Below, one piece after another: positions 23,360 to 64,000 of a stretch of DNA of 64,000 nucleotides (its first letter is position 1; every line of letters begins with the position of its first letter). The DNA is from Planktothrix tepida. Lineage in GTDB: Bacteria; Cyanobacteriota; Cyanobacteriia; Cyanobacteriales; Microcoleaceae. Location: the NCBI RefSeq assembly GCF_904830955.1, contig NZ_LR882970.1, one strand, 5' to 3'. A program made the position numbers and the translations under genes. The notes under the pieces are model-generated. The model had not been told where the DNA came from, did not search any database, and saw nothing but the letters and a program-made list of their open reading frames with translations.

Positions 23360-23480
23360 AAAGTTCTGTTTGTCCTCAACACCATTTGTTTTTTCGTATC
23401 ATAAACGAAAGTTACCCATTCGTAAAGGTTAAACTCTAGGAACTTGATTAAAATAGTAAGTCGATACTAAGTTTATTTTT

Positions 23481-24047
23481 TTAGGTTGACAATTTAGAAG
23501 AAACCTTCCATACATAAAATCTAATTAAATCATACACTAAAGCCCCCCACTCGTAAACTAAATTAGCGGGCAAATAATGATAAAATAAAAGACGAAATGG
23601 CATTCTTCGATAGGCGAGTTCAGGATAAGAAGTAATAACTTCTTGGACGTTATAGCCACAGAGTTTAAACATTAACTGACTTCGTAAAGCATGGGGTTTA
23701 TTACAATATAAAATAACATCATCTAATGGCCATTTTTCTTGCTGTTCTAACCATTTTCTTAATAATCTAGCATTATCAAAAGTATCCAAATAGGGACGAT
23801 CTTTAACATTCTCAGGAACAATAACTTGGAGTTCAGGACGATAATGTAAAAGATATTTTGCAGCACACTGTTCTTCTGATTCAGGACAATCAAAGGAATT
23901 ACCCGGAGAAATAAAGACTTTTTCCTCAACAGAAACCTGCTTTAAAACTTGTTGTAAAACTGCTTCAAAATAATTGGATAAAAAGTAGTATTGGGCGAAA
24001 TCTTCCCGATAAACTAATCCTTCTGTTACGACAATATGGCTAACCAT
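23481..24047 (-). CDS. ElyC/SanA/YdcF (DUF218) family protein
   Basis: VFISPGNS...DTFDNARLLRKWL...ILYCNKPHALR matches the DUF218 core (SGG...T.eNA...VTS.hH). Confidence 0.62.
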   Translation of the reverse strand: MVSHIVVTEGLVYREDFAQYYFLSNYFEAVLQQVLKQVSVEEKVFISPGNSFDCPESEEQCAAKYLLHYRPELQVIVPENVKDRPYLDTFDNARLLRKWLEQQEKWPLDDVILYCNKPHALRSQLMFKLCGYNVQEVITSYPELAYRRMPFRLLFYHYLPANLVYEWGALVYDLIRFYVWKVSSKLST

Positions 24048-24049
24048 GA

Positions 24050-25114: not shown

Positions 25115-25188
25115 AACTTTATTATTCTTTATTATGGTTATAGTTTAGCATTAATTAGGGATATAAGAGCTAAAAAAAGTAATTTTTT

Positions 25189-46788: not shown

Positions 46789-47280
46789 CTATTGAACAGC
46801 CATTGTCACTAATTCTTGGAGCTTTTGATCGAGCATTTCTGCAACTCTCAAAATTTTCGGATTCTCAAATCTACCTAATAGAGATGAAGGTTGATCATAG
46901 GTAATATAAGTTTTGCCATTATATTCATCATACACAAACAATCGCAGGGGAACGTAAAGACCGACTGCCGGGTCTTCTTCAAACATTTGATTCGCAATCA
47001 GGGGATTACCAATTATATAAAGTTTAGCTTGTTTAAATTTGCCACATAAGGAAAGCACTTTACCAGATTCAAGGTGTGTAAAAATCATTAAATCATGTTT
47101 ACCCACCATTGATTTAACTGCATTTTCTACTTCTGTAAAAGAGGCATTTGCATCTATCAACTTTTGAAAAATCAGATTATTAGCTTTACCAACCATTGAC
47201 TCTATAGCCGTGGTGACTTGGGCAAAGGATTTTTCTGAAGACACTTTTATGTGGTTTACGGTGAAATTAATAGTTTCCAT
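46789..47280 (-). CDS. DUF302 domain protein
   Basis: 163 aa. GNPLIANQMFEEDPAVGLYVPLRLFVYD fits the DUF302 core. Confidence 0.6.
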   Translation of the reverse strand: METINFTVNHIKVSSEKSFAQVTTAIESMVGKANNLIFQKLIDANASFTEVENAVKSMVGKHDLMIFTHLESGKVLSLCGKFKQAKLYIIGNPLIANQMFEEDPAVGLYVPLRLFVYDEYNGKTYITYDQPSSLLGRFENPKILRVAEMLDQKLQELVTMAVQ

Positions 47281-47380: not shown

Positions 47381-47653
47381 TTATAATCCAGCTAGATATT
47401 TTGATAAAGACTCAATTGAGGGGTAATCATAGGTTATGGTTGGATCAATAGAACCTCCCAACCAGTTCTCTAAATCGCTAGTTAATCCAATAGTCGCTGA
47501 GGAATCCAAGCCATAGCGGTCAAAAGAAGCTTTAACATCAACTTCATTGGGATCAATTTCCAGAAGTTGGGCTATATAAGAAACCAACCAAGCTTGAATA
47601 GCAGATTGGTTCTTGTGGGTTTCAACAGCGATTTCTTGATTTTGAATTGCCAT
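47381..47653 (-). CDS. Stand-alone acyl carrier protein
   Basis: 90 aa with the phosphopantetheine-attachment motif YGLDSSATIGL. It is cotranscribed with four desaturases and a FAAL. Confidence 0.75.
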   Translation of the reverse strand: MAIQNQEIAVETHKNQSAIQAWLVSYIAQLLEIDPNEVDVKASFDRYGLDSSATIGLTSDLENWLGGSIDPTITYDYPSIESLSKYLAGL

Positions 47654-47862
47654 GATAATTTTTTCCTGAATGGGTCTGGGATAAAAATTTTGCTCACCAA
47701 AAATGGGAGCAATGGATTGGGTCGTTAAAAGTCCCTTCCCTAAATTATAAACCTAAATTTCTGGGTTTTTTTCTGGGTTTTTATGAGTGAACATTAAATT
47801 TCTAAAACAAGAAAATTAGGTTCATAATTAAGACAGTAGACGAGATAGATTTTAGTATCCTG

Positions 47863-48828
47863 CTATGTTGCCTTTCTAGCTGCTAAAAAAGCTTTTTTAG
47901 CTTTGATAGTATCGGCTTTAGGAATCTTGACATCCCAAATTAAACCCAGCTTTTCTAAAATGAGGACAACCCAGCCCCCGATATCAACTTGCCACCAGTC
48001 GAAACCAAAAATGGCTGATTGCGGAAAAGCATGGTGACTATTGTGCCATCCTTCACCCAAGGAAGGAAGAGCCAGCCAGAGATTGTTCCGGCTGTGATCA
48101 GGGGTATTAAAGGAGCGACCGCCAAGGACGTGACAAAAAGAGTTGACGCCATTGATGAGGTTATTGACAAAGAACATCCGCACCAGTCCTCCCCAAAGAA
48201 AGCCTTGAAAAGCTCCCAGCCATGAGTTTGTCAAAACACCGCCTAGGATAGCAGGAATGACCAGTCCTAAAATCACCCACAGCCAATAATATCGGCTCGC
48301 TGTTGTTAGGGCTTTGTCCCGCAGTAAGTCTGGAACATAGTGGATGGTATTGGGGTGTTCTCTGTTGGTCGCTAACCAGCCATCATGAGCGTGCCAAAAG
48401 CCTTTGATCTGATCCGTAACTCCTTCTCCAAAAAGATGGGGAGAATGAGGATCTCCGGGTTGATCGGCATATTCATGATGACGACGATGGGCGGCTACTG
48501 CCAACAGCAAGGGGCCAGGGGCTGCCATAGAACCTAGAATTGCTAAGGTCACTCTAACAACGACATTAGCTTTAAACGCATTATGGCTAAAAAGGCGATG
48601 CCAACCCACAGTAAAGCCAATTTGAGTTAAGAACCACAAACTGATAAACAGCCCTAAGTCCACCCAAGTCATAGGAATTCCGAACAATAGTAAAACAATG
48701 GCGGTGATGAATCCCAAAAAAGGTACAACTTCAAACAAGATGAAGTGTATGGTTTGAGGAACTCTCAGGTGAGGGGCTGTGACGGTTTTTTGTCTTTTGT
48801 CTGGATTAACAAGAGGCTCTGTAATCAT
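47863..48828 (-). CDS. Membrane fatty-acid desaturase, Delta9 acyl-CoA/acyl-lipid type, paralog 1
   Basis: Three His boxes: HRLFSH, HRRHHEYAD, HNSHHAFP. 4 TM helices. Confidence 0.85.
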   Translation of the reverse strand: MITEPLVNPDKRQKTVTAPHLRVPQTIHFILFEVVPFLGFITAIVLLLFGIPMTWVDLGLFISLWFLTQIGFTVGWHRLFSHNAFKANVVVRVTLAILGSMAAPGPLLLAVAAHRRHHEYADQPGDPHSPHLFGEGVTDQIKGFWHAHDGWLATNREHPNTIHYVPDLLRDKALTTASRYYWLWVILGLVIPAILGGVLTNSWLGAFQGFLWGGLVRMFFVNNLINGVNSFCHVLGGRSFNTPDHSRNNLWLALPSLGEGWHNSHHAFPQSAIFGFDWWQVDIGGWVVLILEKLGLIWDVKIPKADTIKAKKAFLAARKAT

Positions 48829-48894
48829 TGGATCAGCTAGGTTTATGATTGCGGTTAATCATTGCTTTTCTGGGTTTAATGCTCAACTTGAAGG

Positions 48895-49827
48895 CTAGTT
48901 GCAGGCTTCATTACAACTCACCTTTCTTTTTTTAGCGGCGATCGCTTCGGCTGTAGGCATTTTCAAGTCCCAAACCAAACCTAGCTTTTCCAGTAGTCGA
49001 ATCACGAAGCCACCGACATCGATTTGCCACCAGTGGAAACCATGAATAGCCGCATAAGGAAAAGCATGGTGGTTGTTGTGCCATTCTCCACAGGTGAACA
49101 AGGCAACCCAGAGGTTATTGCGGCTATAGTCGTCAGTCTCAAAGGGACGATTTCCTAAGAGATGGGCCAGAGAGCCAACCGTCCAAAAACCTAAATGGTG
49201 TTGAAGGAAGATACGGAGAAAGCCGCCCCATAATGTTCCGGTCAACGCCCCCATCCAAGTTCCGGTGATTACTCCACCAATAACACCAGGAATCGCTACT
49301 CCCAAAAATAGCCACAAATAATAAAGTTGGCTAATTCTGTTCAGCATGGGATCTCGCACCATGTCTTTAGCAAAGACAAAGGTGTTCGTGAGTTCATGAT
49401 TGAATGTCCAACCGACATGAGAATGCCATACACCTTCTAAAAAGCCCAATTTTTGCTCTTCTTTAACAAAGGGAGAATGGGGATCTCCGGGGGTATCGCT
49501 GTATTTGTGGTGACGGCGATGGGTGGCTACCCAATAATTGAGGGGGCCTTCTGCGGCCATAGAACCCAGGACAGCCAGGATAATTCTCACCGTCTGATTA
49601 GCCCCGAAGGCGCAGTGGGCAAAGTGTCTATGCAGCCCTACTGTTACGCCAATCGCTGTTAAAAAATACATAATTAGCAATAGCCAGATATCTACGGCAC
49701 TAACACCGATCTGAAAAGCCAGGACTACTGCTGCTACAGATCCGCTTAAGGGAATGATGAGATTGCTGATGCCGTGAATTTCTTGTTGTCTTTTCAGGCG
49801 ATCGCTTTTAATTGTGATTGCTTGCAT
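48895..49827 (-). CDS. Membrane fatty-acid desaturase, paralog 2
   Basis: His boxes HRHFAH, HRRHHKYSD, HNNHHAFP. Confidence 0.85.
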   Translation of the reverse strand: MQAITIKSDRLKRQQEIHGISNLIIPLSGSVAAVVLAFQIGVSAVDIWLLLIMYFLTAIGVTVGLHRHFAHCAFGANQTVRIILAVLGSMAAEGPLNYWVATHRRHHKYSDTPGDPHSPFVKEEQKLGFLEGVWHSHVGWTFNHELTNTFVFAKDMVRDPMLNRISQLYYLWLFLGVAIPGVIGGVITGTWMGALTGTLWGGFLRIFLQHHLGFWTVGSLAHLLGNRPFETDDYSRNNLWVALFTCGEWHNNHHAFPYAAIHGFHWWQIDVGGFVIRLLEKLGLVWDLKMPTAEAIAAKKRKVSCNEACN

Positions 49828-49864
49828 TGTTGGCTCAACCTACATAAGTTTTGTAGTCGGGACT

Positions 49865-50884
49865 TTAATCCTGAGCTAGGGTAATTGTTTTCGCCTCTAT
49901 CATCTTGGCGGTGGGCAGATTTACATCCCAAGCCCAGCCTAATTTTTCCAAGATCCAAATTACTGCATAACCAATATCAATTTGCCACCCTTTCAAACCG
50001 ATAGCAGCAGAGCTTTCAAACGCATGGTGATTGTTTTGCCAAGACTCGCCAAACGTTGGGATAGCCACCCAAGGGTTATTCTTGCTTTGATCGCCTGTCT
50101 TAAAACCACGAGTCCCATAAACATGAGAGACGGAATTAACGCTCAATATGATGTTATCTACAATAAACAGGCGCACAACACCACCCCAAAGAAAGCCTTG
50201 CAATGCTCCTATTAGGGACAAATGAAGTAGTCCGCCGATCATAGTAGGAATCGCTAGACCCAGAAGCACCCAAACTAGATACAATCGGCTAATTTTGGAT
50301 ATGCTTTGATCTCGCAGGAGTTCAGGGGCATAATAGGTTGGATTAGGATAATCATGATCAATCAGCCAGCCAACATGGGAATGCCATAATCCCTTGAGAG
50401 TTCCGAGAAATCCCTGACCGTGAAGATTAGGGGAATGGGGATCACCGGGTAGATCACTGCACTCATGATGGCGACGATGAACGGCTACCCAGGAAATTAA
50501 GGGCCCTTGGGCAGCTACAGAACCCAATATGGCGAATATCACCCGAATGCTCTGGTGAGTTTTAAAAGCACGATGGGTATAGTAGCGATGAAAACCGACA
50601 CTCACCCCGGTCATGGTCAAAGCCCACATCACAATCAGCATTCCGATCTCGATTGGCCCAATGGGTAGCCACAAAAGAGAAATGATCGCCACAATTGTTC
50701 CTAAAAAGGGAATGAAATTGTACCACCAAAAATGTTTATATTGCAGTCCTTTAATGTAGTCATTGCTAATAACCTTTGTCTTCTGATTGGGTATGGCAGT
50801 ATCGAAATGTGTTGTCATTCTCTGAACTCCTAATAGATGACGCAATACAAAAATTTGGCAGTGAAAAAATCCGGATTCAGTCAA
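49865..50884 (-). CDS. Membrane fatty-acid desaturase, paralog 3
   Basis: His boxes HRYYTH, HRRHHECSD, QNNHHAFE. Confidence 0.85.
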   Translation of the reverse strand: MTESGFFHCQIFVLRHLLGVQRMTTHFDTAIPNQKTKVISNDYIKGLQYKHFWWYNFIPFLGTIVAIISLLWLPIGPIEIGMLIVMWALTMTGVSVGFHRYYTHRAFKTHQSIRVIFAILGSVAAQGPLISWVAVHRRHHECSDLPGDPHSPNLHGQGFLGTLKGLWHSHVGWLIDHDYPNPTYYAPELLRDQSISKISRLYLVWVLLGLAIPTMIGGLLHLSLIGALQGFLWGGVVRLFIVDNIILSVNSVSHVYGTRGFKTGDQSKNNPWVAIPTFGESWQNNHHAFESSAAIGLKGWQIDIGYAVIWILEKLGWAWDVNLPTAKMIEAKTITLAQD

Positions 50885-50889
50885 GTTTA

Positions 50890-51876
50890 CTAGAAATTGC
50901 TGGCATCTATTGTTAAATTTTCTGACTGTTTGTTAACCTTCAACTTTTCTGCAATCATCCCGGCTGTGGGGGTTTTGAGATCCCAAGCTAAACCTACTTT
51001 TTGGAGAGCCAGAATCACCCCACCGCCAATATCAATTTGCCACCATTTCAGACCTAACAAGGCTGAGTGTGGAAAAGCATGATGATTGTTATGCCAAGCT
51101 TCTCCAAAGTTGGCTAGAGATAGCCAGAATGTGTTGTGGCTTTGCTCTTCGGTATCAAAGGGGCGTTGTCCATAATAGTGAGCAATGGAGTTAATCGTCC
51201 AAAAGGCATGATTAACCCAAAAGATTCGCACCAATCCCCCCCAGAGAAATCCTTGTAAAATGCCTATCCAAGTTCCCGTGAGAAGTCCGTCTACAATTGC
51301 CGGAATGGCTAAACCCAGGATAACCCAAGTCAGATAGAAACGATTGACTTTGGTAATTATTGGATCTCTGAGCAAGTCTTTAGCAAAAACAACCGTATTG
51401 GTAACGTCACTGTTCAACATCCAAGCAACTTGACCATGCCACAATCCCCGCAGAGTTGCCCATTTTTCTCCTTTGTATATTAAGGGGGAGTGGGGATCCC
51501 CTGGGCGATCGCTATACTTATGATGCCGACGGTGAATACTTGCCCATTGAATAACAGGCCCTTGAGCGGACATACATCCTAATATTGCTAACAGGATTCT
51601 AATGACTGTATTTGTCTTAAAAGCACCGTGAGCAAAATGTCGATGAAAACCCACTGTTATTCCCAGCATTGTCAAGGTATACATGACCAGAAATAGTCCA
51701 ATGTCTACTGAACTGATCCCAAACTTAAAAGTTGTATAAATGGCTATTAATAACCCAAAAAAAGGAATCAAGATAGTAGCAAAGGCGTAACGCTGTTGCA
51801 GGGATTTAAGATAATCATTTTCTAGGGTGATCTTGGGGCTTATATTGGGTGTTGGGCTATCCACGGGTATAGACAT
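50890..51876 (-). CDS. Membrane fatty-acid desaturase, paralog 4
   Basis: His boxes HRHFAH, HRRHHKYSD, HNNHHAFP. Only 5 nt separate it from paralog 3. Confidence 0.85.
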   Translation of the reverse strand: MSIPVDSPTPNISPKITLENDYLKSLQQRYAFATILIPFFGLLIAIYTTFKFGISSVDIGLFLVMYTLTMLGITVGFHRHFAHGAFKTNTVIRILLAILGCMSAQGPVIQWASIHRRHHKYSDRPGDPHSPLIYKGEKWATLRGLWHGQVAWMLNSDVTNTVVFAKDLLRDPIITKVNRFYLTWVILGLAIPAIVDGLLTGTWIGILQGFLWGGLVRIFWVNHAFWTINSIAHYYGQRPFDTEEQSHNTFWLSLANFGEAWHNNHHAFPHSALLGLKWWQIDIGGGVILALQKVGLAWDLKTPTAGMIAEKLKVNKQSENLTIDASNF

Positions 51877-51936
51877 TGATCTTTCCTCAATTTACCTAGG
51901 TTTAAATAGCAGGGGAAAATTTAAAACTCAAGGAAT

Positions 51937-53682
51937 TTATAACTCCGATTTTCCAATCTTTCCCCCGACAATATTGAGAGTTTCGCACAGAAACTTTTCT
52001 TTGCAAATACGCCGTTGAATTTTGCCACTGGAAGTTTTAGGAATACTCCCCGTTTTAATCAGTACCGTGCCATAAGCCTGGATTTCATGTTGCTGCATGA
52101 TGGCTTCGCCGATTTCTGCTACGACCTCTTTGACATTCAGATGTCGTAAATGTGTCCGTTCGACTTCAGCTACTATGACTAACTGCTCTGTATTATCTTT
52201 TTCTATTGCAAAAGCTGCACAACAATTGCCTCGCAACGCTGGATGGCTGGTTTCTACTGTTATTTCAATATCTTGGGGGTAATAATTGCGACCTCTAATA
52301 ATAATCATATCTTTCATCCGTCCCGTGATGAATAGCTCACCCTCTCGCAAAAATCCTAGATCTCCAGTGCGGAGAAACGGCCCATGATGAGGATCTGCTA
52401 GATAAGCTCCAAAGGCTTGTTCTGAAAGTTCCGGTTGGTTCCAATAGCCTTGGGCAACACTTTCACCCGATACCCAGATTTCCCCGACTTGACCTGAATG
52501 ACATTGCTGAAAAGATTCGGGTTCAACGATGACAATTTTGGTATCTAGCCAACCTCGTCCACATCCAACGAGATGTCTAACATTTTCAACGTCTTTAGAT
52601 GCTTCTGTCACCCCATTTTGCTCTAATGCGTCGGCTGCAACGGTGCAGTAAATGGGTTCTTCTTGAACCAGTCCCCCTGAAATCATTAAGGTAGATTCAG
52701 CCATCCCATAGCAGGGATAAAAACTCTTAGCCGGGAAACCACAAGGGGCAAATTTAGCAATAAAACGCTCTAAAGTTTCTCTCCGCACGGGTTCAGAACC
52801 ACTGTAAGCACTTTCCCAGCTACTGAGGTCGAAGGTTTCAAGTTGTTCATTGGTAATCTTCTGAACGCAAAGATCGTAGGCAAAATTAGGCCCGCCGCAG
52901 TGGGTTGCTTTGTAGTTTGTAATTGCCTGTAGCCATCGCCAAGGGTGTTGGATAAAACTTTCGGGTTTCATCAATACGCCCATAAATCCGGTGTACAAAG
53001 GCTGAATAATTCCATCAATTAGACCCATATCATGAAAACTGGGTAGCCAGCTAACCGATATACTGTCTTGTGTCAGTTGAAAGGCTTGTTTGATATACTG
53101 CGAATTGTGGAGTAAATTACCATGAGTTACCATTACTCCTTTTGGTGTTCCTGTCGATCCAGATGTGTATTGGAGAAAAGCTAAAGAATCTATTGTTGTT
53201 GTTGATTTCTCCCAATTTGAAGCTAGATCAATACTAATTTCATCGCTAACTATTAAAGGTAAAGTTGCTAATTCGGGATAATGAGTTAGTTGTGATTTGA
53301 GTTTGCTGAATAGAGATGTTGTAGTTAGTGCTAATGTTGCTTGTGAATCTGATTTGATTGTTAAAAGCCGAGTTGCTGGTCTGTTGGGTCGAGGAGGATT
53401 AACAGGAACTGCGATCGCATCAGCATATAAACATCCAAAAAAAGCACTAATAAATTCTAAACCGGGTGGATATAATAATAATACTCTTTCGCCCCGATTA
53501 ATTTTCTGACCCAGTTGATAGGCAATTGCTCTGGCTTTTTGATCCAATTCTTGATAGGTTAATTGATCTGATTCTTGTTCTCCATTTGGAAGAAACTTAA
53601 ATGCTATTTGGTTAGGTTGAGCAACGGCCTGATCCCGTAGTATTTCTACTAAAGTTAAATCCCTTTTTTCTATTTTCCCCAT
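51937..53682 (-). CDS. Fatty acyl-AMP ligase (FAAL)
   Basis: LQYTSGSTGTPKGVMVTHGNLL AMP-binding motif, with the FAAL-type insertion and a C-terminal GKIQRR block. Confidence 0.85.
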   Translation of the reverse strand: MGKIEKRDLTLVEILRDQAVAQPNQIAFKFLPNGEQESDQLTYQELDQKARAIAYQLGQKINRGERVLLLYPPGLEFISAFFGCLYADAIAVPVNPPRPNRPATRLLTIKSDSQATLALTTTSLFSKLKSQLTHYPELATLPLIVSDEISIDLASNWEKSTTTIDSLAFLQYTSGSTGTPKGVMVTHGNLLHNSQYIKQAFQLTQDSISVSWLPSFHDMGLIDGIIQPLYTGFMGVLMKPESFIQHPWRWLQAITNYKATHCGGPNFAYDLCVQKITNEQLETFDLSSWESAYSGSEPVRRETLERFIAKFAPCGFPAKSFYPCYGMAESTLMISGGLVQEEPIYCTVAADALEQNGVTEASKDVENVRHLVGCGRGWLDTKIVIVEPESFQQCHSGQVGEIWVSGESVAQGYWNQPELSEQAFGAYLADPHHGPFLRTGDLGFLREGELFITGRMKDMIIIRGRNYYPQDIEITVETSHPALRGNCCAAFAIEKDNTEQLVIVAEVERTHLRHLNVKEVVAEIGEAIMQQHEIQAYGTVLIKTGSIPKTSSGKIQRRICKEKFLCETLNIVGGKIGKSEL

Positions 53683-53838: not shown

Positions 53839-55350
53839 CTAAAATACTTCTAAATCTGAAAACCGCCCCATTTTTTGAGCCTGTGCAGCTTCACCACAAG
53901 TCGGAGGTGTGGGAAACATCTTACCTGGATTTGCCAAACCTTGAGGATTAAAAGCTAGGCGCGGCCATTGCATGGTATCTAAATCAATATGATTAAACAT
54001 TTCCGGCATCAAACATTTTTTATCAGCACCAATACCATGTTCTCCAGAAATACTTCCACCCACTCTCACACAAAGTTTTAGAATTTCGCCACTTAATTCT
54101 TCAACCTGTTTAAAAGCACCAGGAACGGAATGATCATAAAGAATGACTGGATGTAAGTTGCCATCACCCGCATGAAGGGCATTAGCAATACGATACCCAT
54201 ATTGATTTCCTAAAGCTGAAATTTCCTTAAGAACAGCGACTAATTGAGTCCGAGGGATCACTCCATCTTGAAGAAAATAATGACTTTGATAACCTAATGC
54301 AATTAGGGCTGTTTTACGTCCTTGCCAAAGTTTGATTCGCCTTTGTTCGTCACTAGCAATGATTACATTTCTGGCTCCGTTTTGTTGGCAAATTTTAGCA
54401 ACCTGCTGTTTACTGCTTTCAACTTCTACTGCTAAACCATCAACCTCTATCAACAAAACTGCCTCAGCATCTCTAGGATAACATCCGGTATTAATAACAT
54501 CTTCAATCGCTTTAATCGTAGTCCCATCCATTAATTCCATTGCCGCCGGAATTATTCCAGCACTAATAATATGAGTAACCGTATCACCTGCGGCTTCAAT
54601 AGTGGTAAAGTCTGCTAGAACAGTACCAATGGCTTCAGGTGTTTTAATAATGCGTAAAGTAATTTCTGTGGCAATACCTAGAGTGCCTTCTGAACCGATA
54701 AATAAACCCGTGAGATCATAACCGGGCATTTCTGAAATGATTCCCCCAACATCAACTACAGAACCGTCAGGAATTACCAATTTTAATCCCAAGACATGAT
54801 TCGTTGTTACTCCATATTTCAAGCAATGAATACCCCCCGCATTCTCCGCAATGTTACCCCCAATTGTACAAACCGTTTGACTGGAAGGATCTGGTGCATA
54901 ATAAAAACCTTTACCACTAATGGCTTGAGTCACCCAATTATTGATCACACCAGCTTGCACAATAATTCGCTGATTTTCTAGGTCAACTTTTAAGATTTTG
55001 TTCATTAAGGTGGTGACAATTAAAACACAATCTTCAACGGGTAGTGCACCTCCAGATAAACCTGTTCCCGCACCCCGCGTCACCCAAGGAATTTGGTTTT
55101 CATAACAGATTTTTACTACCTCTGCTACTTGTTCAGTAGTGCGGGGTAGTACCACTAATGCGGGACGTTGACGATAGCTTGTTAAACTATCACATTCATA
55201 GGTGAGCAATTCTTCCTGACGTTGGACAACTCCTTTTTTACCCACAACCGCCTCAAATTTTGGGGCAATTTTTTGCCATTGAGACACGCCATGGCTCTTC
55301 TGTACTTGTAGAGGAGAGGCGATATTCTGATTAATCATTTTGTCGATCAC
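53839..55350 (-). CDS. FAD-linked oxidase, GlcD/D-lactate dehydrogenase family
   Basis: FAD-binding PCMH domain (VVLPRTTEQVAEVVKICYENQIPWVTRGAGTGLSGGALP) plus a C-terminal FAD-oxidase domain. Confidence 0.8.
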   Translation of the reverse strand: MIDKMINQNIASPLQVQKSHGVSQWQKIAPKFEAVVGKKGVVQRQEELLTYECDSLTSYRQRPALVVLPRTTEQVAEVVKICYENQIPWVTRGAGTGLSGGALPVEDCVLIVTTLMNKILKVDLENQRIIVQAGVINNWVTQAISGKGFYYAPDPSSQTVCTIGGNIAENAGGIHCLKYGVTTNHVLGLKLVIPDGSVVDVGGIISEMPGYDLTGLFIGSEGTLGIATEITLRIIKTPEAIGTVLADFTTIEAAGDTVTHIISAGIIPAAMELMDGTTIKAIEDVINTGCYPRDAEAVLLIEVDGLAVEVESSKQQVAKICQQNGARNVIIASDEQRRIKLWQGRKTALIALGYQSHYFLQDGVIPRTQLVAVLKEISALGNQYGYRIANALHAGDGNLHPVILYDHSVPGAFKQVEELSGEILKLCVRVGGSISGEHGIGADKKCLMPEMFNHIDLDTMQWPRLAFNPQGLANPGKMFPTPPTCGEAAQAQKMGRFSDLEVF

Positions 55351-55388: not shown

Positions 55389-55646
55389 ATGACGGCTAAA
55401 GTAGAAATTTACACTTGGACTTATTGCCCTTTTTGCCCTAGAGCCAAAGCCTTACTTAAGAAGAAAGGGGTTGAATTTACTGAATACTCTATTGATGGGG
55501 ATGAAGACGCTAGAGCTAAGATGGCAGAACGAGCTAATGGCAGACGGAGTGTTCCTCAAATTTTCATCAATGATCAACATATTGGTGGTTTTGACGATAT
55601 TTCCGCATTAGATAAGCAGGGAAAACTGGACGAACTTTTACAATAA
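55389..55646 (+). CDS. grxC: Glutaredoxin 3
   Basis: CPFC active site, TVPQIFI and GGFDD motifs. 85 aa. Confidence 0.9.
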   Translation: MTAKVEIYTWTYCPFCPRAKALLKKKGVEFTEYSIDGDEDARAKMAERANGRRSVPQIFINDQHIGGFDDISALDKQGKLDELLQ

Positions 55647-56822: not shown

Positions 56823-57959
56823 TTAATCCAAGTTAATGGTTTTAATTCCACTTTTTCCAGGAATTTTGGCAATTAGTAAATTAATGGCATTGACTACCGG
56901 ATCTAAATAAGCCTGGGTTAAAGTCGGATAAGGCTGAGGTTGGTTTTTGCCAATACCAAATTCTAATTTTTCCTCTTTTTCGGGTAGATATAAAGTCCCA
57001 AACATCCAGTCCCAAATTCCCAAAAACTCCCCGTAGTTCTTGTTAATGTGTTGGGGTGCTATGCTGTGATGAATTTGGTGTAGAACTGGACTTATAAAAA
57101 TATGGTTCCCTATCTTTCCATAATCAAGCCAGATGTGAGAATGGGCAAGATTACCACCTGCCATATAATATAGAGCGACCAAAAAATTCAGACCAAATAG
57201 AGTTATAACATGGATTTTACCAAAAAATAGATAAATTAGTATCCCTTGTAAAGGAGCGCTGATGGCTGTAGTAATCAGCTTTTTATTAAGTTCATATAAG
57301 GGGTGAGAACGATATAAACTAATGGGGGTCAAGACTTCACTGGAATGATGTAGACTGTGAAATTGCCACAGGATAGGATTTTGGTGATGCCAAGCATGGT
57401 TAAGGTAAGATGCAAAGTCAAAAACTGCAACAAATAAGAGGGTAAAAATCACGAGCGATCCCAAGTTTTCGGTTGTGAATCCGCCAAAATAACCAAAGGT
57501 TGCTTGCAGCCAATTATTGACTAGAGATGCTACTAATGATGTTTCAAACCACGCTAAACGCAAATTACCAGGAGCGAGAATATTATTGATGATAAAGATT
57601 TGATAATCTAGCAGGGCTGAAGGATGAAAGTAGATTTCTTTGGGGAAGCAAAAACTAAGAAATCCTTTAAAGTTAAGATCAGACTTAGGTTGCGATCGCC
57701 AATAAACCAGTCCAGCCAATAACAGAGAAGTTAATAAATATAGCCAATAAAGGCGACGGCTACCATTAAGGTGATGGAAGATTTGACTGCGAAAATATTC
57801 AAGAATTTGACCTAGTAATCTTTCTAGGTCTGCTACCCAAGTTGTTAATTCTGGTGTCATGGAATGTTTAGAAACAGAGAGTAGGGGGTGCTGAAATTTG
57901 CTAATTTTTATTACTGATTTAGCATTGGAGCCGAGACAAAAATATTTAGTCTGAGTCAA
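56823..57959 (-). CDS. Fatty acid hydroxylase / sterol desaturase superfamily membrane oxygenase
   Basis: His boxes HAWHHQ, FHSLHHSSE and LHQIHHS on a polytopic membrane scaffold. It overlaps the downstream DMT gene by 14 nt. Confidence 0.7.
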   Translation of the reverse strand: MTQTKYFCLGSNAKSVIKISKFQHPLLSVSKHSMTPELTTWVADLERLLGQILEYFRSQIFHHLNGSRRLYWLYLLTSLLLAGLVYWRSQPKSDLNFKGFLSFCFPKEIYFHPSALLDYQIFIINNILAPGNLRLAWFETSLVASLVNNWLQATFGYFGGFTTENLGSLVIFTLLFVAVFDFASYLNHAWHHQNPILWQFHSLHHSSEVLTPISLYRSHPLYELNKKLITTAISAPLQGILIYLFFGKIHVITLFGLNFLVALYYMAGGNLAHSHIWLDYGKIGNHIFISPVLHQIHHSIAPQHINKNYGEFLGIWDWMFGTLYLPEKEEKLEFGIGKNQPQPYPTLTQAYLDPVVNAINLLIAKIPGKSGIKTINLD

Positions 57960-58926
57960 CAGTAATTTCTTGAATGGCTGCTTTCTGAGAACCTTGAGCA
58001 GATTTAGCTAAATATATCCCAGCCAACACGGCAAAAAACGCTACCCAGTTGAGGATAGTGAGTTTTTCGGAAAATATTACCCAGGCTAATATGGCAGTAA
58101 TAATTGGATCAAGCAACAGAAACAAAGATACAAAACCTGATGAAAACTTTTTCAGGTTATGGAACATAATCACCGTCGCTAGAACTTGACAGAAAAGTGC
58201 GAGGGAAATTACGGCTAACCATCCATTCACGGAAATGGGAAAAATTTGATCATCAAAAATCAAAGTTATGGGTAACAGCCAAAGAGTTCTGAACAAACAA
58301 CTCCATAATATGATAGTTGTTGCCGAAAACTTAGCTCGTAGTTTTTCTGCACAGAGAGCATTGCCCGCATAAAATACAGATGAAAGTAAAGCGATCGCAT
58401 CTCCTCTAAAATGAGTGCTCGTTAAGTTAAAATCTTCAAAACCAATAGTTAACGCACCGACTGAAGCTAAAATCAAACCCATAATAAATTTGCTGTCAAA
58501 CCTGTGTTTTAAAAATAGCCAACCGCCTAAAGTGGCAAAGAATGGGGTGAAATTATGCAATAAATTGGAATTAGCGATATTGGTTTGAGTTAAAGACCAA
58601 GCCCAAGCCGTTAAATTAGCCGCACCAAAACCCGCAGCTAGTACAAATAATCCTATATCCTGAAGAGTCCAAGACTCCTGGGGTTTAGGGGGTTTCTGGG
58701 ATACTTTACTACTGATAATTGTGATGATCTCCCAAACCCCAAGGATGACAGTAGAAATCAAAAACCGATTAAAGACTGTAGCATTAGGACTAATTTCTTG
58801 TTCGCTGACTCTGATAAATATTGGTGCTAGAGACAACATAAATACTGCTAGGGGAATTAACAGTAAAGTGTTCAGAGTTGGTTTTGTTTCAGTTTGTACT
58901 TCTGGAACATTGACTGTGATAGTCAT
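57946..58926 (-). CDS. DMT-superfamily (EamA) transporter
   Basis: 10 TM helices with two EamA repeats. Confidence 0.75.
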   Translation of the reverse strand: MTITVNVPEVQTETKPTLNTLLLIPLAVFMLSLAPIFIRVSEQEISPNATVFNRFLISTVILGVWEIITIISSKVSQKPPKPQESWTLQDIGLFVLAAGFGAANLTAWAWSLTQTNIANSNLLHNFTPFFATLGGWLFLKHRFDSKFIMGLILASVGALTIGFEDFNLTSTHFRGDAIALLSSVFYAGNALCAEKLRAKFSATTIILWSCLFRTLWLLPITLIFDDQIFPISVNGWLAVISLALFCQVLATVIMFHNLKKFSSGFVSLFLLLDPIITAILAWVIFSEKLTILNWVAFFAVLAGIYLAKSAQGSQKAAIQEITVDSD

Positions 58927-59067: not shown

Positions 59068-60465
59068 GGGGGAGCGATAAGTCCCACACTGAATTTCACA
59101 CTCACCAAAAGATAACCACCAAATCAGTGTGGGTTACATGGACTCCCCCAAGTTAATTTTAAGCGGTGAATCCCGACAAAATTAACAATAATATGTTAGA
59201 TTATATCTAATAGTTTTGAAAGCGATAATGTTTCAAGGGTATAAGTTCCGAATCTATCCAACGATTGAACATCAGATTGTCTTAGCCAAAAGCTTTGGCT
59301 GTTGTCGTTGGTATTGGAATTATGCCCTGAATTTGTGTCAAGAAACTTATAAACAAACAGGAAAAGGGTTATCAAGAAAAGCGATTCAAGGATTATTACC
59401 TCAACTGAAGAAGGAATATCCTTGGTTAAAAGATGCCTATTCTCAATGTTTACAAGTTGTCGCTCTTAATTTATCTACCGCTTACAAAAACTTCTTTGAA
59501 AAACGGGCTAGATTACCTCAATTCAAATCCAAACACGGTAGACAATCAATCAGTTATCCTCAAAATGTTACCTTTGAAGGGGATTATCTGAAATTACCCG
59601 GCAAGATTGGGTTGATTTATTGTCGTCGCCACCGAGAATTTGAGGGGACAATTAAAACCGTTACTATCTCAAAGAATCGTGACGGGAAATACTACGCATC
59701 CATCTTGGTTGATGATGGCAAGGAAATACCTAATTCATCAACTAATGGAAAAGCGATTGGGATTGATTTAGGATTAACCCATTTTGCAATTACCAGTGAT
59801 GGTGATAAATATAGTAACCTCAAACACTTTGCCAAACATCAACACAACTTAAAACGAAAACAACAAAAATTATCTCGTAAACAAAAAGGGAGTAATAGTA
59901 GACAAAAGGCCCGATTAAAAGTTGCTAAACTCCACGCTAAAATCGCTCGTTGCCGAGAAGATTTTCTGCACAAGCTATCCCGCAAGATAGTTAACGAAAA
60001 CGTAGAGACGTGCCATGGCACGTCTGTACTTGCTGTAGAAGATCTGGCAGTTAAGAATCTGGTCAGAAACCCTAAATTAGCTAAGGCAATTAGTGATTGT
60101 GGTTGGGGAATGTTCTGTACAATGTTGAAGTACAAAGCCGAAAAAGAAGGGAAAACCTATATCGAAATTGATCGGTTTTTCCCTTCTTCTAAAACTTGTA
60201 ATGTCTGCCTTAATCAAGTGGGTAGTTTACCCCTTGATATTAGAAGTTGGACTTGTGAAAATTGCCAAACTCTCCATGATCGAGATATAAATGCTTCAAT
60301 TAATATCAAAAATGAAGCCTTGCGGATTCTGTCGTTAGGAACTAGCGACACTGCCAATCTGAGGGGATGTAAGTCATCTGGTAAAACTTTTGTTCTATCA
60401 GATGCTATCCCCGTCGAAGTTGGAAGCCCGTACAGACGTGCCATGGCACGTCTCTACTCGTAGAG
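59068..60465 (+). mobile_element. IS200/IS605-family element carrying only tnpB (IS1341-like)
   Basis: An imperfect long hairpin at the left end (GGGGGAG..CCCACACTGA...TCAGTGTGGG..GACTCCCCC, 59068-59149), the tnpB ORF, and a right-end palindrome (60430-60457) just before the tnpB stop. No tnpA. Confidence 0.7.
59216..60463 (+). CDS. tnpB: TnpB (OrfB), RuvC-like RNA-guided nuclease of the IS605 family
   Basis: OrfB_IS605 N-terminus (YKFRIYPT), RuvC motifs (IGIDLGL...; AVEDLAVKNL), and a C-terminal zinc finger CNVCLN...CENCQTLHDRDINASINI. Confidence 0.88.
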   Translation: MKAIMFQGYKFRIYPTIEHQIVLAKSFGCCRWYWNYALNLCQETYKQTGKGLSRKAIQGLLPQLKKEYPWLKDAYSQCLQVVALNLSTAYKNFFEKRARLPQFKSKHGRQSISYPQNVTFEGDYLKLPGKIGLIYCRRHREFEGTIKTVTISKNRDGKYYASILVDDGKEIPNSSTNGKAIGIDLGLTHFAITSDGDKYSNLKHFAKHQHNLKRKQQKLSRKQKGSNSRQKARLKVAKLHAKIARCREDFLHKLSRKIVNENVETCHGTSVLAVEDLAVKNLVRNPKLAKAISDCGWGMFCTMLKYKAEKEGKTYIEIDRFFPSSKTCNVCLNQVGSLPLDIRSWTCENCQTLHDRDINASINIKNEALRILSLGTSDTANLRGCKSSGKTFVLSDAIPVEVGSPYRRAMARLYS

Positions 60466-60594: not shown

Positions 60595-63500
60595 ATGGAA
60601 GCTATCGCAATAATTGGAATGGGTTGTCGTTTCCCCAAAGCTCAAGATATAGAATCCTTCTGGAGACTACTGAAGGAAGGCCTAGATGCCATCACTGAGA
60701 TCCCGATACAGCGATGGGATATTAATGATCTATATACTCCCAAAGCAGGTACACCGGGAAAAACCGTGTCCCGTTGGGGCGGCTTCTTAGATAATATCGA
60801 TCATTTTGATCCTGACTTTTTCGAGATTCCCGTCGGTGATGCCCAGCGCATAGACCCCCATCATAGACTGGTATTAGAGGTGGCTTGGGAATCTTTAGAA
60901 AATGCTGGTATCGTCCCCCATACATTAGCAGGTAGTAAAACAGGGGTATTCATTGGCATGAGCCAAAGCGATCATAATAGACTGCTTTATAAAGATATAT
61001 CTGCCATAGATGCTGAAGATGGGCCCCACACATTTCTTTGTTTTGTAGCTAATCGCTTATCTTACTTGTTAAATTTGCAAGGGCCTAGTTTAGCGATTGA
61101 TACCGCTTGTTCTTCCTCTCTTGTTGCTGTACATTTAGCTTGTGAGAGTTTACGCACTGGTGAGTCTAATTTGGCTATTACTGGAGGAGTATCTTTACGT
61201 TTATCTCCAGAAGAATCAATTGCTCTTTCTCTCAAAGGGATGCTATCTCCTGATGGTCGCTGTAAAACTTTTGATGCTGAAGCGAATGGTTTTGTTAGGG
61301 GTGAAGGGTGCGGAATTGTTGTTCTCAAACGCCTTGATGATGCCCTTAAAGATAGAGATAATATTCTAGCTGTTATTAGAGGGTCGGCTGTTAACCATAA
61401 TGGTCTGAGTCATGGGATTACATCTCCTAATGGACTGGCTCAACAAAGACTGCTTCAACAAGCGCTGGAAAATGCTGAAGTCTCACCCAATCAAATTGGT
61501 TATGTGGAAACCCACGGGACTGCTTCGGCTTTAGGAGATGCTATTGAATATAAAGCCTTAAAAACAATATTAATGCCAAATCGAGAACCAGATCAACCTT
61601 GTTGGCTGGGCTCAGTTAAAAGTAGTATTGGTCATTTAGAAGCGGCGGCTGGAATAGCAAGTTTAATTAAGGCAACCCTATCCCTGCAACATCGACAGAT
61701 TTTTCCTAATCTACATATTAAACAAGTCAATCCTTATATTTCTTTAGCCGGGACAACTTTCTCGATCCCAACCGCTTTAGAGCCTTGGACTTCAAGCACA
61801 GAGTCAAGATTTGCTGGAGTAAGTTCTTTTGGTTTTGGGGGTACTAACTGTCATGTCATTTTAGAAGAAGCTCCGTTATTACCTCGGAAAAGTATCACCC
61901 CGATGGAACGTCCCCTACATCTTCTGACCCTATCAGCCAAGAGCGAAAAGGCACTATTAGACCTGGCAAATCTTTATAGAGAAAACTTGCAGAACAGTGA
62001 TGCTAATTTTTCCCTAGCAGACTTCTGTTTCAGTGCTAATACCGGAAGAACTCATTTTGACCATCGTTTAGCTGTTGTGGCAGAATCACAGGCAGTATTG
62101 GTAGAAAAGTTAGCGACTATTGCTCATCAAACTGATATTTTGGGAAGGGATAAAAAGCGATCGCTCAAGGGTCAGCAACCCAAAATAGTATTTTTATTCC
62201 CTGGACAGGGGACTCAATATCTTAATTCCTGTCGTCAACTCTACGAAACTCAACCGACTTTTCGGGCTATTTTAGATCGCTGCCAAGAAATTCTCCGCCC
62301 TTATTTAGATCAGCCACTACTAAAAATTTTATATCCAGAATATCAGAACACAGCCACTCATTTATTAACTGAAACAGCCTATACCCAACCTGCTTTATTC
62401 GCCCTGGAATATGCCTTAGCTGAGTTATGGAAATCTTGGGGGATCATCCCGGATGCTGTTATGGGTTATAGCCTGGGTGAATATGTAGCAGCTTGTGTGG
62501 CTGGGGTGTTTAGTTTAGAAGATGCCCTCAGTCTAGTCGCCCAACGGGGACATTTAATGCAATCTTTATCGCCGCAGGGAGTAATGGTGGAGGTTTTGGC
62601 GGATGTGACCCAGGTGGAAACTGCTATTGCACCTTATCGATATAAGGTGGCGATCGCAGCCGTCAACAGTCCTAAAAATATCATTATTTCGGGTGAAATT
62701 GAGGCAGTTGAAGCCGTCGTCGCAACTTTGCAAAATGATAATATTAAAACCCGAAAGTTAAACTACAATCTAGCTTTCCATTCTCCTTTAATGGAACCCG
62801 TTGCCACCGCCTTTAAACCCATTGCTTCAACCATAACTTATTCATCCCCAAAAATTAGGATCATTTCTCCGATTACGGCACAGCCCATTCAAGCAGAAAT
62901 CGCAACTCCTGAATATTGGTGCAATCAGATTCACCAGCCAGTCCGATTTGCTGATAGCATCAAGACTCTTGATCATCAAGGTTATAAAGTCTTTGTGGAG
63001 GTAGGCCCCCAATCTCTACTTTTGGCAATGGGTAGAGAGTGTTTAGATCCGGGTGTGGGGGTTTGGTTAACGGGGGCTAGTTCCGATGGGTCAGACTGGC
63101 TACAACTCCTGCAAAATTTAGCAACTTTATATTTACAAGGAGTTCCTGTAGATTGGCATGGTTTTGATCGGGATTATCCTCGAAATTGGCAATTACTACC
63201 AACTTATCCCTTCCAAAAACAACGATACTGGTTTGATCAAGATGCCAATAGTTTTTACCAAACTACCCCATTATCAAACCCAGTATCAAACCCAGAAATA
63301 GCTTGTCAAAATAGTCTGAAAACCCCATCAAACCCCGATTTAAAAACAACTCTAAATTCTGATTCTACTGACGATTTAGCTTCATTGGTTTTGACTCCTA
63401 CAGCCGAATCAATTCAAAATTGGATAGTCAATTGGCTGCATCAAAATTTACCCGGAGAAATTCAATTAACAGACAATAGCAAATCAGGAAAATCTTTTCT

Positions 63501-64000
63501 GGATTATGGACTCAAATCCATAGGAGCAGTAAAATTAGCTAAAGATTTAGAACAATTGCTCGGACGTTCCTTAGAAGCCACAATTGTTTGGAATTTTCCG
63601 ACTATTGAATCTTTAGCGCTGCACTTAGCTGGTGATCCAGAAAACCCAGTTTCAACGGTTGAAGAGGAGCACAAAAAGTTAATCAGTCCATTCCCCGTTG
63701 GCAAAAAAGCGATGCAATTTAGCTTATTATATTTTGCCAGTAACGAAGCTGAATTCAAAGATGACAAGTACAGATTATTAATAGAAAGTAGCCAATTCGC
63801 TGATAAACATGGCTTTAGCGCAGTTTGGATACCCGAACGCCATTTTCATGCTTTTGGTGGACTTTACCCCAATCCTGCGGTTTTGGGTTCTGCTCTGGCA
63901 ATGGTAACAGATCGCATTCGTATTCGTGCGGGTAGCGTGGTTTTACCCCTACATAACCCTATCCGAGTGGCTGAAGAGTGGGCGGTGGTGGATAACCTTT
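60595..64000 (+). CDS. Type I polyketide synthase, KS-AT-ACP-LLM (luciferase-like monooxygenase) domains; 3'-partial
   Basis: KS: GMGCRFP...DTACSSSLVAVHLAC...HGTASALGD...GHLEAAAG. AT: GQGTQYL...GYSLGEYVA. ACP: DYGLKSIGAVKLA. Then MQFSLLYFASNEAEF...HGFSAVWIPERHFHAFGGLYPNPAVLG (LLM fold). There is no stop codon before the window end and no loading domain before the KS. Confidence 0.9.
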   Translation, partial: MEAIAIIGMGCRFPKAQDIESFWRLLKEGLDAITEIPIQRWDINDLYTPKAGTPGKTVSRWGGFLDNIDHFDPDFFEIPVGDAQRIDPHHRLVLEVAWESLENAGIVPHTLAGSKTGVFIGMSQSDHNRLLYKDISAIDAEDGPHTFLCFVANRLSYLLNLQGPSLAIDTACSSSLVAVHLACESLRTGESNLAITGGVSLRLSPEESIALSLKGMLSPDGRCKTFDAEANGFVRGEGCGIVVLKRLDDALKDRDNILAVIRGSAVNHNGLSHGITSPNGLAQQRLLQQALENAEVSPNQIGYVETHGTASALGDAIEYKALKTILMPNREPDQPCWLGSVKSSIGHLEAAAGIASLIKATLSLQHRQIFPNLHIKQVNPYISLAGTTFSIPTALEPWTSSTESRFAGVSSFGFGGTNCHVILEEAPLLPRKSITPMERPLHLLTLSAKSEKALLDLANLYRENLQNSDANFSLADFCFSANTGRTHFDHRLAVVAESQAVLVEKLATIAHQTDILGRDKKRSLKGQQPKIVFLFPGQGTQYLNSCRQLYETQPTFRAILDRCQEILRPYLDQPLLKILYPEYQNTATHLLTETAYTQPALFALEYALAELWKSWGIIPDAVMGYSLGEYVAACVAGVFSLEDALSLVAQRGHLMQSLSPQGVMVEVLADVTQVETAIAPYRYKVAIAAVNSPKNIIISGEIEAVEAVVATLQNDNIKTRKLNYNLAFHSPLMEPVATAFKPIASTITYSSPKIRIISPITAQPIQAEIATPEYWCNQIHQPVRFADSIKTLDHQGYKVFVEVGPQSLLLAMGRECLDPGVGVWLTGASSDGSDWLQLLQNLATLYLQGVPVDWHGFDRDYPRNWQLLPTYPFQKQRYWFDQDANSFYQTTPLSNPVSNPEIACQNSLKTPSNPDLKTTLNSDSTDDLASLVLTPTAESIQNWIVNWLHQNLPGEIQLTDNSKSGKSFLDYGLKSIGAVKLAKDLEQLLGRSLEATIVWNFPTIESLALHLAGDPENPVSTVEEEHKKLISPFPVGKKAMQFSLLYFASNEAEFKDDKYRLLIESSQFADKHGFSAVWIPERHFHAFGGLYPNPAVLGSALAMVTDRIRIRAGSVVLPLHNPIRVAEEWAVVDNL

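Follow-up and report, generated by a model that had tools for sequence, protein, structure and literature searches.

A cassette with four tandem desaturases, an acyl-AMP ligase and an acyl carrier protein next to a single-module polyketide synthase in Planktothrix tepida: a candidate route to polyunsaturated or polyacetylenic lipids

In a 64,000-nucleotide stretch of contig NZ_LR882970.1 of the cyanobacterium Planktothrix tepida (assembly GCF_904830955.1; hereafter, the window), six genes at 47381-53682 encode a fatty acyl-AMP ligase (FAAL), four membrane desaturases (Des1-4) and a stand-alone acyl carrier protein (ACP). Open reading frame (ORF) calls and profile searches place all six on the minus strand, as had been read from the bare sequence in an earlier note on this DNA. 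Exact database matches of the hydroxylase, GlcD-like, DUF302 and Des2 proteins encoded here assign the window to strain PCC 9214 (PCC9214_02764 and _02774); an exact look-up of Des1 gave no match. Together with a single-module type I polyketide synthase (PKS) encoded nearby, this cassette probably constitutes an orphan biosynthetic gene cluster (BGC) in which, by analogy with characterized pathways, a fatty acid would be loaded onto the ACP, desaturated several times while bound to it, and passed to the one-module PKS.

The gaps among the six cassette genes span 37-209 nt, and these short distances, along with the shared strand, suggest that the cassette is a single co-transcribed operon; scans of the window yielded fewer promoter-like sites than shuffled sequence did, and the terminator candidates were weak. 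The FAAL matches the NCBIfam fatty-acid--AMP ligase models with E-values of 1e-112 to 1e-142, and its best PDB matches include FadD32, FadD23 and FadD28, all of which are FAALs. The ACP, a protein of 90 amino acids, matches PF00550 at 5e-14 and contains the serine of the phosphopantetheine-attachment motif within GLDSS. For both proteins, JamA/JamC-type references were taken from the FAAL-Des-ACP-PKS locus of Moorena producens PAL, and polyyne references here and in the desaturase comparisons below from the pSMg1-1 cluster of Streptomyces sp. Mg1. The FAAL is 57% identical to the Moorena JamA-type protein vs 38% to that of the Streptomyces polyyne cluster, and the respective values for the ACP are 64% (JamC-type) and 33%. 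These identities, together with the clustering of Des1 described below, bear out the proposal of the earlier note that the cassette is JamABC-like. The FAAL, then, most likely loads a free fatty acid onto the dedicated ACP, which would tether the acyl chain during desaturation.

The four desaturases of the window share 44-51% identity in pairwise comparisons, and their genes give a DNA-level repeat signal with a period of about 1 kb. Thus, the description of these proteins as four divergent paralogs holds, with identities at the low end of the 45-60% originally estimated by eye. The start codon of Des2 is the ATG at 50818 rather than the TTG at 50884, and the resulting product of 317 amino acids is an exact match to a database entry. 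Des1 matches the stearoyl-CoA desaturase SCD1 (PDB 4YMK) at 7e-30, which puts the tetrad within the delta-9 stearoyl-CoA desaturase fold family. In Des1, Des3 and Des4, the three conserved boxes retain their full set of eight histidines. The third box of the Des2 orthologs is invariably QNNHH, not HNNHH, and that of the Des4 orthologs is mostly HNSHH.

Across the homologous loci that we compared (designated by L numbers), orthologs of each desaturase are 71-97% identical vs 44-58% for paralogs, and the four orthogroups are each supported at 100% bootstrap in a neighbour-joining tree. Between Planktothrix species, orthologs are 96-97% identical, and the orthologs of Des3 in L001, L003, L006, L013 and L017 are 72-97% identical to the window protein. 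By these comparisons, Des1-4 appear to be neither recent nor redundant copies. That four distinct lineages have been maintained in a fixed order speaks for separate functions, all of them required together, and against redundancy.

The phylogenetic placement that the earlier note had called for was carried out in part. The analysis was a bootstrapped neighbour-joining one, in which the cassette desaturases of L005 and L007 served as proxies for JamB and those of Streptomyces sp. Mg1 as proxies for the polyyne triad; its deep nodes are unresolved. Des1 is 59-63% identical to the single JamB-type desaturases and forms a clade with them at 72% bootstrap, its partners being the single desaturases of FAAL-Des-ACP-PKS/nonribosomal peptide synthetase (NRPS) cassettes from Scytonema, Moorena producens PAL and a Nostoc metagenome-assembled genome (MAG). 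Des2-4 fall outside the JamB-type clade, and Des2 clusters, at 90% bootstrap, with the single Q-type desaturases of three non-cyanobacterial FAAL-Des-ACP-PKS loci (L019-L021, from Gammaproteobacteria, Vicinamibacteria and Proteobacteria MAGs). Orthology of Des2, on account of its QNNHH box, with the Q-type polyyne desaturase of Streptomyces was ruled out (0% bootstrap, 38% identity), and because the two do not cluster, the desaturase expansion looks independent. The other members of the Streptomyces triad do not group with Des1-4 either, with the deep nodes in this part of the tree unsupported.

Given that Des1 is the JamB-type member, it is conceivable that the output of the cassette is no more than a JamB-like starter unit ending in an alkyne or alkene and that the three additional desaturases are isoenzymes for different chain lengths or conditions which do not act in sequence. 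The number of desaturases indeed varies, with one (L005, L007, L125) or two (L126) in other cyanobacterial cassettes, the tetrad being the largest set found, and a locus in a Synechococcus MAG appears to retain only Des2 and Des3 intact. We consider this explanation improbable, however, because the four orthogroups are kept in order, with their metal-binding motifs intact, across distant lineages, which argues for jointly required functions, and because each desaturase proved essential in the experimentally dissected polyyne triads (PMC9828172).

The order FAAL-Des1-Des2-Des3-Des4-ACP is kept in Planktothrix, Anabaena sp. UHCC 0187 and Dolichospermum sp. LEGE 00240, as well as in an uncultured cyanobacterial MAG, a Xenococcaceae MAG and two Joint Genome Institute (JGI) metagenome contigs. 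The cluster is also present in P. pseudagardhii, P. mougeotii LEGE 06226 and Planktothrix sp. FACHB-1365, and related clusters occur in genomes of Anabaena, Dolichospermum and Aphanizomenon. In the database, only about five clusters formed at 90% identity match Des1 at 72% or more. Judging by this occurrence, the cassette genes are patchily distributed accessory genes. The same PKS was found wherever the sequence extends far enough past the cassette (L001, L003, L004, L013, L018 and L036-L038).

The shared parts come in three arrangements. In Planktothrix, Anabaena sp. UHCC 0187, L018 and L043, the PKS gene and the gene for an EamA transporter are divergent neighbours, separated from the cassette by the genes for a hydroxylase, gshA, grxC and a glcD-like gene. 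Between Planktothrix and Anabaena sp. UHCC 0187 (L013), the FAAL-Des1-4-ACP-DUF302 block is inverted with respect to the glcD-grx-gshA-hydroxylase-EamA-PKS block. In the third arrangement, the cassette lies directly upstream of the PKS. Because FAAL-Des1-4-ACP-PKS-EamA are contiguous on one strand in both L003 and L004, synteny supports the assignment of the PKS to the same predicted cluster as the cassette, and the link between the two, first proposed from their proximity, gains the backing of comparative genomics.

This arrangement is also pertinent to the view that Des1-4 are DesC-like desaturases that adjust membrane fluidity, with the FAAL and ACP recycling free fatty acids and the PKS an unrelated neighbour. 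In public databases, these proteins are annotated as acyl-CoA or delta-9 desaturases, or as ‘palmitoyl-MGDG delta-7 desaturase’; the housekeeping-type gshA, grxC and glcD-like genes are interleaved with the cluster, and our tree included no bona fide DesC. Nevertheless, we find this view very hard to accept and grant it only a marginal chance: close homologs are limited to a handful of genomes, always in the FAAL-Des-ACP order; the FAAL and the ACP are as close as noted above to proteins of a PKS pathway; the PKS is located directly downstream in L003 and L004; and the block is 73-96% identical at the protein level between Anabaena sp. UHCC 0187 and Planktothrix despite their belonging to different orders. 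Housekeeping DesC delta-9 desaturases, which the earlier note had named as the finding that would speak against it if they occurred in tandem with no PKS nearby, and which are expected in nearly all related cyanobacteria irrespective of FAAL, ACP and PKS genes, were accordingly rejected as an identification, in view of the patchy presence of a four-desaturase set found only in the FAAL-Des-ACP order and accompanied by this PKS wherever the sequence extends far enough.

The PKS frame opens at 60595 on the plus strand, 6.9 kb from the cassette, in line with the roughly 7 kb given in the earlier note. Its ketosynthase (KS) domain begins at residue 1, and therefore, this is a PKS without a loading domain. 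Full-length versions comprise 1663 amino acids in P. pseudagardhii (L036) and Planktothrix sp. FACHB-1365 (L037), 1624 in a P. mougeotii-type contig (L001) and 1712 in L003, and consist of one module in which the KS is followed by an acyltransferase (AT), an ACP, a luciferase-like monooxygenase (LLM) and a thioesterase (TE); the TE is a C-terminal PF00975 domain present in L003, L036 and L037. The KS retains the triad Cys169/His307/His347, and the AT carries the malonyl-like xAFHS motif. The LLM domain scores 495 bits (cut-off 244) against TIGR04020, the MupA/Atu3671 family of natural-product LLMs, and matches PuwE (PDB 6KET) at 3e-123. The oxygenase domain of PuwE has been assigned to the 2-hydroxyl of the 3-amino-2-hydroxy fatty acid of puwainaphycin (PMC4219810), and PKS-embedded LLMs in general are associated with alpha-hydroxylation or Baeyer-Villiger chemistry (PMC8739492). 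A metagenome scan with the LLM-TE region returned mostly LLMs beside adenylation-type (FAAL-like) or other PKS matches, with L043 the only locus of the cluster type.

Put together, these assignments suggest the following pathway. The FAAL would adenylate a free fatty acid and load it onto the dedicated ACP, on which Des1-4 would introduce several unsaturations, stepwise or as a complex, in the form of double bonds, triple bonds or both. Electrons would probably come from the ferredoxin of the cell, the usual donor for cyanobacterial acyl-lipid desaturases. The modified acyl-ACP would then prime the KS of the loading-domain-less PKS for the addition of one malonyl unit, after which the PuwE-like LLM is predicted to hydroxylate C-2 of the beta-ketoacyl intermediate. 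The C-terminal TE would release a 2-hydroxy-3-oxo acid, which may decarboxylate to an alpha-hydroxy ketone. Finally, export would fall to EamA, with the hydroxylase as a possible source of one more hydroxyl. Of this scheme, the data show the identities of the genes, the catalytic motifs, the orthology and order of the four desaturases and the link between cassette and PKS; the substrate, how many unsaturations arise and of which kind, the hydroxylation at C-2 and the mode of release are inferred. Sequential desaturation or acetylenation is proposed by analogy with JamB and the polyyne triad, the precedents for ACP-tethered desaturation, the latter being a synergistic set of three desaturases that needs a FAAL, an ACP and a TE (PMC8406139, PMC9828172).

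Several observations weigh against this pathway, or against parts of it. In the PKS, the AT motif at residues 624-628 is GYSLG instead of the usual GHSxG, and the ACP motif at residues 971-975 is GLKS instead of the usual GxDS, so that the activity of both domains is assumed. The C-terminal TE resembles type II editing thioesterases such as RifR and RedJ, and a PKS-fused TE of this type from a cyanobacterium has been shown to act in editing and not in release (PMC5707447). In the window, the cassette and the PKS are on opposite strands, so that co-regulation is not evident, and they are separated by the housekeeping-type GshA, GrxC and GlcD-like genes and an insertion sequence (IS) element. 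A tblastn search of the window with the Streptomyces Mg1 member detected no desaturase of the delta-12 type, and a similar search with the Streptomyces rubredoxin gave no significant match; both are present in all characterized polyyne clusters. The desaturase phylogeny is of the neighbour-joining kind, with the deep nodes as described above. Lastly, sequence does not tell an acetylenase from a desaturase, and the label ‘polyyne’ is not established; that triple bonds are made, and not only double bonds, seems to us possible although, on balance, doubtful.

A bolder interpretation, and in our estimation an unlikely one when all its parts are taken together, is that cyanobacteria have independently evolved their own machine of four delta-9 desaturases, without a delta-12-type enzyme or rubredoxin, that builds a conjugated ene-yne or polyyne on the ACP; that the KS-AT-ACP-LLM-TE module converts this chain to a reactive lipid of the alpha-hydroxy-ketone type; and that the island in its entirety, gshA and grxC among its genes, was exchanged by horizontal transfer between Oscillatoriales and Nostocales. 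Were this the case, the lipid might be an allelochemical of benthic and bloom-forming Planktothrix and Anabaena/Dolichospermum, and the role of the glutathione genes would be to shield the producing cell from an electrophilic polyyne.

The predicted members of the cluster and the genes between and around them are listed in Table 1.

Table 1. Genes of the predicted cluster and adjacent genes in the window
Feature	Position	Strand	Basis
FAAL, JamA-type	51937..53682	-	PF00501, PF23024, NCBIfam FAAL models
Des1, JamB-type delta-9-family desaturase, HNNHH third box	50890..51876	-	PF00487
Des2, desaturase with QNNHH third histidine box	49865..50818	-	PF00487, motif table
Des3, third desaturase paralog	48895..49827	-	PF00487
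Des4, fourth desaturase paralog, HNSHH third box	47863..48828	-	PF00487, motifs
Stand-alone ACP, JamC-type	47381..47653	-	PF00550
DUF302 protein, directly 3' of the ACP gene	46789..47280	-	PF03625
GlcD-like FAD-linked 2-hydroxy-acid oxidase	53839..55338	-	PF01565, PF02913
Glutaredoxin GrxC	55389-55646	+	TIGR02181, 124 bits
Cyanobacterial-type glutamate-cysteine ligase GshA	55696-56817	-	TIGR02048 gshA_cyano, 550 bits
Fatty-acid hydroxylase/sterol-desaturase-family di-iron membrane enzyme	56823..57860	-	PF04116
EamA/DMT transporter	57946..58926	-	PF00892
IS200/IS605-family TnpB	59216..60463	+	PF12323, PF01385, PF07282
Single-module type I PKS, KS-AT-ACP-LLM, cut by the window end within the LLM	60595..64000	+	Pfam domains

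The EamA gene is transcribed divergently from the PKS in the window and lies 3' of it in L003 and L004. Homologs at 70% identity or more are few, and those with genomic context that was read (L013, L018, L036, L037 and L043) are all in loci with the cluster; one further homolog (L123) adjoins a fragment of an AMP-binding gene and a Tn3 transposase fragment, resembling a remnant. EamA is a probable exporter of the product. Homologs of the hydroxylase at 77% identity or more were found only in genomes with the cluster, including Anabaena sp. UHCC 0187 (83%), and the next matches, at 49% or less, are not cyanobacterial where the source is named. This restriction to cluster-bearing genomes makes the hydroxylase a cluster-linked accessory gene. 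There is no close homolog on the L003 contig, as far as that contig was read, and the hydroxylase probably acts in tailoring in the form of the cluster found in Planktothrix and Anabaena-type loci. The possibility that EamA, the hydroxylase and gshA represent a general cyanobacterial neighbourhood was rejected: the genes around the one distant EamA homolog examined (54% identity, from Crinalium) are unrelated, and close homologs of the hydroxylase are confined to the cluster-bearing genomes.

The remaining genes are more difficult to assign. The GlcD-like protein scores 561 bits against TIGR00387, below the cut-off of 568, and may be a housekeeping glycolate dehydrogenase or a tailoring enzyme. 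Its gene adjoins the cassette in Planktothrix (the window, L036 and L037) and in L013, L018 and L043, and would also be linked to the cluster in the third arrangement, through a member of its 90%-identity cluster on a JGI metagenome contig. GshA and GrxC are housekeeping in type, and their membership in the pathway is uncertain; both genes occupy the same position, with 90-96% identity, in Anabaena sp. UHCC 0187, L018 and L043. Considered as a group, gshA, grxC and the glcD-like gene are 86-96% identical between Planktothrix, of the Oscillatoriales, and Anabaena sp. UHCC 0187, of the Nostocales (L013, 14040-16953). That these genes are as similar between the two orders as the biosynthetic genes suggests that the whole block moved horizontally or else that they serve the pathway; they may be cargo, have tailoring or self-protection functions, or be mere passengers. 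The DUF302 protein is 86-91% identical in L013, L014 and L018 and thus co-conserved in the Planktothrix and Anabaena/Dolichospermum loci; its gene is absent from the L003 and L006 loci.

The TnpB protein, which is not part of the pathway, contains HTH_OrfB_IS605, OrfB_IS605 and Cas12f1-like TNB domains and is encoded between the EamA and PKS genes. A 33-nt inverted repeat around the palindrome GACGTGCCATGGCACGTC is located at 60001-60034 and 60425-60458, inside or near the 3' part of tnpB, and a related copy lies at 55277-55306, within the glcD-like gene. The site of TnpB varies: it is in the gap between EamA and PKS in the window and in L036 and between Des4 and the ACP in FACHB-1365 (L037), and none was found in the EamA/PKS gap of L037 or of the P. 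mougeotii-type contig L001. This mobility raises the question of whether the cluster is decaying or silent, with IS605 insertions and rearrangements having uncoupled the cassette from the PKS such that this strain makes no product. Other signs in the same direction are the calling of Des4 as only 269 amino acids in L001 and L038, the shortened DUF302 gene in L038 and the L123 remnant. We nonetheless deem decay quite improbable in P. tepida, where every ORF of the cluster in the window is full length with its motifs intact and without frameshifts, TnpB is intergenic, between divergently transcribed genes, and the orthologs in other Planktothrix species show the near-identity reported above.

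Four further sets of observations concern loci of other composition. In L017, a Synechococcus sp. UW140 MAG, genes for the FAAL, Des2, Des3 and the ACP with 61-70% identity are found at 7531-12707, with no intact ORF for Des1 or Des4 and no PKS within 8 kb downstream; here the cassette may have been reduced or be in decay. The Nostoc sp. MAG P3034 (L015, 603-11131) contains a different cassette that encompasses a class I/II aminotransferase resembling alpha-oxoamine synthases, a FAAL, two successive pairs that each comprise an acyl-CoA dehydrogenase and a JamB-like desaturase with an ACP, and a Des2 ortholog (85%). Six non-cyanobacterial MAG loci (L019, L020, L021, L024, L025 and L031, from Gammaproteobacteria, Vicinamibacteria, Myxococcales, Pseudomonadales and Oxalobacteraceae) encode one to three delta-9-type desaturases, many with QNNHH, followed by a KS that is 50-60% identical to that of the window PKS. 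A FAAL and an ACP are present in L019, L020, L021, L024 and L025; the L031 sequence ends just upstream of the desaturases and also includes a related LLM domain. The multi-desaturase, PKS-primed cassettes of these MAGs differ from the canonical polyyne core. Elsewhere in the window, a minus-strand gene run at 20803-26646 (a UbiA-family prenyltransferase, an SMR/EamA-like small membrane protein, two NAD-dependent epimerases/dehydratases, DUF218 and a GMC oxidoreductase) resembles an operon for polyprenyl-phosphate sugar or cell-envelope modification and appears unrelated to the cassette.

In a literature search, we found no product assigned to this cluster and no description of a cyanobacterial cassette with four desaturases. 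For P. tepida PCC 9214, only orphan PKS-like clusters ‘with no significant similarity in databases’ have been reported (Pancrace et al. 2017, PMC5259702), and Anabaena sp. UHCC 0187 was described as encoding no known BGCs (PMC7232259). The genes for fischerellin, a cyanobacterial ene-diyne/polyyne, were still unassigned in 2021-2023 (PMC8406139, PMC10088813), and no cluster other than a putative one with two desaturases, for microcarbonin, is mentioned in a review of 2023. The cluster is a testable candidate for a route to polyunsaturated or polyacetylenic lipids in cyanobacteria, compact and well delimited (about 8 kb of FAAL/ACP/desaturase genes plus a 5-kb PKS) in a culturable strain, PCC 9214. 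Polyynes and alkynes from bacteria act strongly against fungi and algae and are useful handles for click chemistry. The cassette might be a second case, apparently independent, in which several membrane desaturases work together on a single ACP-bound chain; enzyme complexes of this type are poorly understood. Its pairing with a PuwE-like hydroxylating and releasing PKS module is previously undescribed. A bioactive product, should it prove to be one, would matter for the ecology of cyanobacteria that form freshwater blooms and mats.

Among known systems, two that the earlier note had listed as potential refutations were rejected. Olefin synthases (Ols/CurM-type) possess a KS-AT-KR-ACP-sulfotransferase-TE module, where KR is a ketoreductase, with a fused FAAL-ACP loading region, whereas the full-length PKS considered here lacks both the KR and the sulfotransferase, and the FAAL and ACP are encoded by separate genes. 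Heterocyst glycolipid synthases (Hgl) consist of a multi-gene PKS set with reducing domains and a glycosyltransferase and include no FAAL or desaturases; in our cluster, the PKS is one non-reducing module and the conserved block encodes no glycosyltransferase, and the cluster occurs in Planktothrix, which is non-heterocystous.

With the puwainaphycin system (PuwC/PuwD/PuwE; 6KET), the cluster shares the priming of a PKS by a FAAL and a stand-alone ACP and the location of a PuwE-like LLM after a non-reducing KS-AT-ACP module. The differences are that the starter would be modified by desaturases rather than by a reducing and methylating PKS module and that there are no aminotransferase or NRPS modules, with a fused TE straight after the LLM in the releasing position. 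With JamABC, the cluster has in common the FAAL-desaturase-ACP gene order, a stand-alone FAAL (JamA homolog), a stand-alone ACP (JamC homolog) and a delta-9-family desaturase between them, and the enzyme that would receive the product is a type I PKS with the KS at its start. The substrate of JamA is a C6 acid. The cluster departs from the one-enzyme scheme of JamB, in which one desaturase acts twice on a short-chain acyl-ACP to form a terminal alkyne, in having four desaturases, and its assembly line is the one module KS-AT-ACP-LLM-TE, in contrast to the long PKS/NRPS lines of the JamABC type.

The closest known analogue is the bacterial cay/pgn polyyne core, which the earlier note did not mention, just as it passed over the genes between the cassette and the PKS. 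In polyyne pathways, a FAAL loads a C14-C18 fatty acid onto a dedicated ACP, as many as four triple bonds are introduced by a desaturase triad, and the acid is set free by a thioesterase, with higher yields in the presence of rubredoxin (PMC8406139, PMC9828172), although rare polyyne clusters without rubredoxin exist (Mullins et al.). The core of our reference, Streptomyces sp. Mg1 pSMg1-1, has the order FAAL-Des-Des-ACP-Des-hydrolase-rubredoxin-P450; the plasmid loci of B. gladioli BSR3 and a Polaromonas locus, which came up in a plasmid search, were rejected as cay clusters, being other two-desaturase cassettes. Like the cay, pgn, ccn and col cores, the Planktothrix locus follows a thiotemplated logic, with a thioesterase function and several membrane desaturases encoded alongside a FAAL and its dedicated ACP, and it includes one QXXHH desaturase, as do cay/pgn and the homologous cluster of Streptomyces Mg1, an HXXHH/QXXHH pair being known for the cay/pgn polyyne desaturases (PMC9828172). 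In the window, however, there is neither a homolog of the stand-alone hydrolase nor a desaturase-fused hydrolase, the TE being the C-terminal domain of the PKS instead, and the four desaturases are all of the delta-9 type, whereas the polyyne core has two that are delta-9-type/JamB-related and one of the delta-12 type (CayE/PgnH). In addition, the chain would be extended by the PKS before release. Because the locus lacks the delta-12-type desaturase, rubredoxin and stand-alone hydrolase and because its FAAL and ACP are of the JamA/JamC type, it appears, by gene content, to resemble the proteobacterial and actinobacterial polyyne triad without being a member of it. The description that fits it best is that of a cyanobacterial JamABC-type cassette which has expanded, in convergence with the design of the polyyne triad, and is coupled to a PuwE-like hydroxylating and terminating PKS module.

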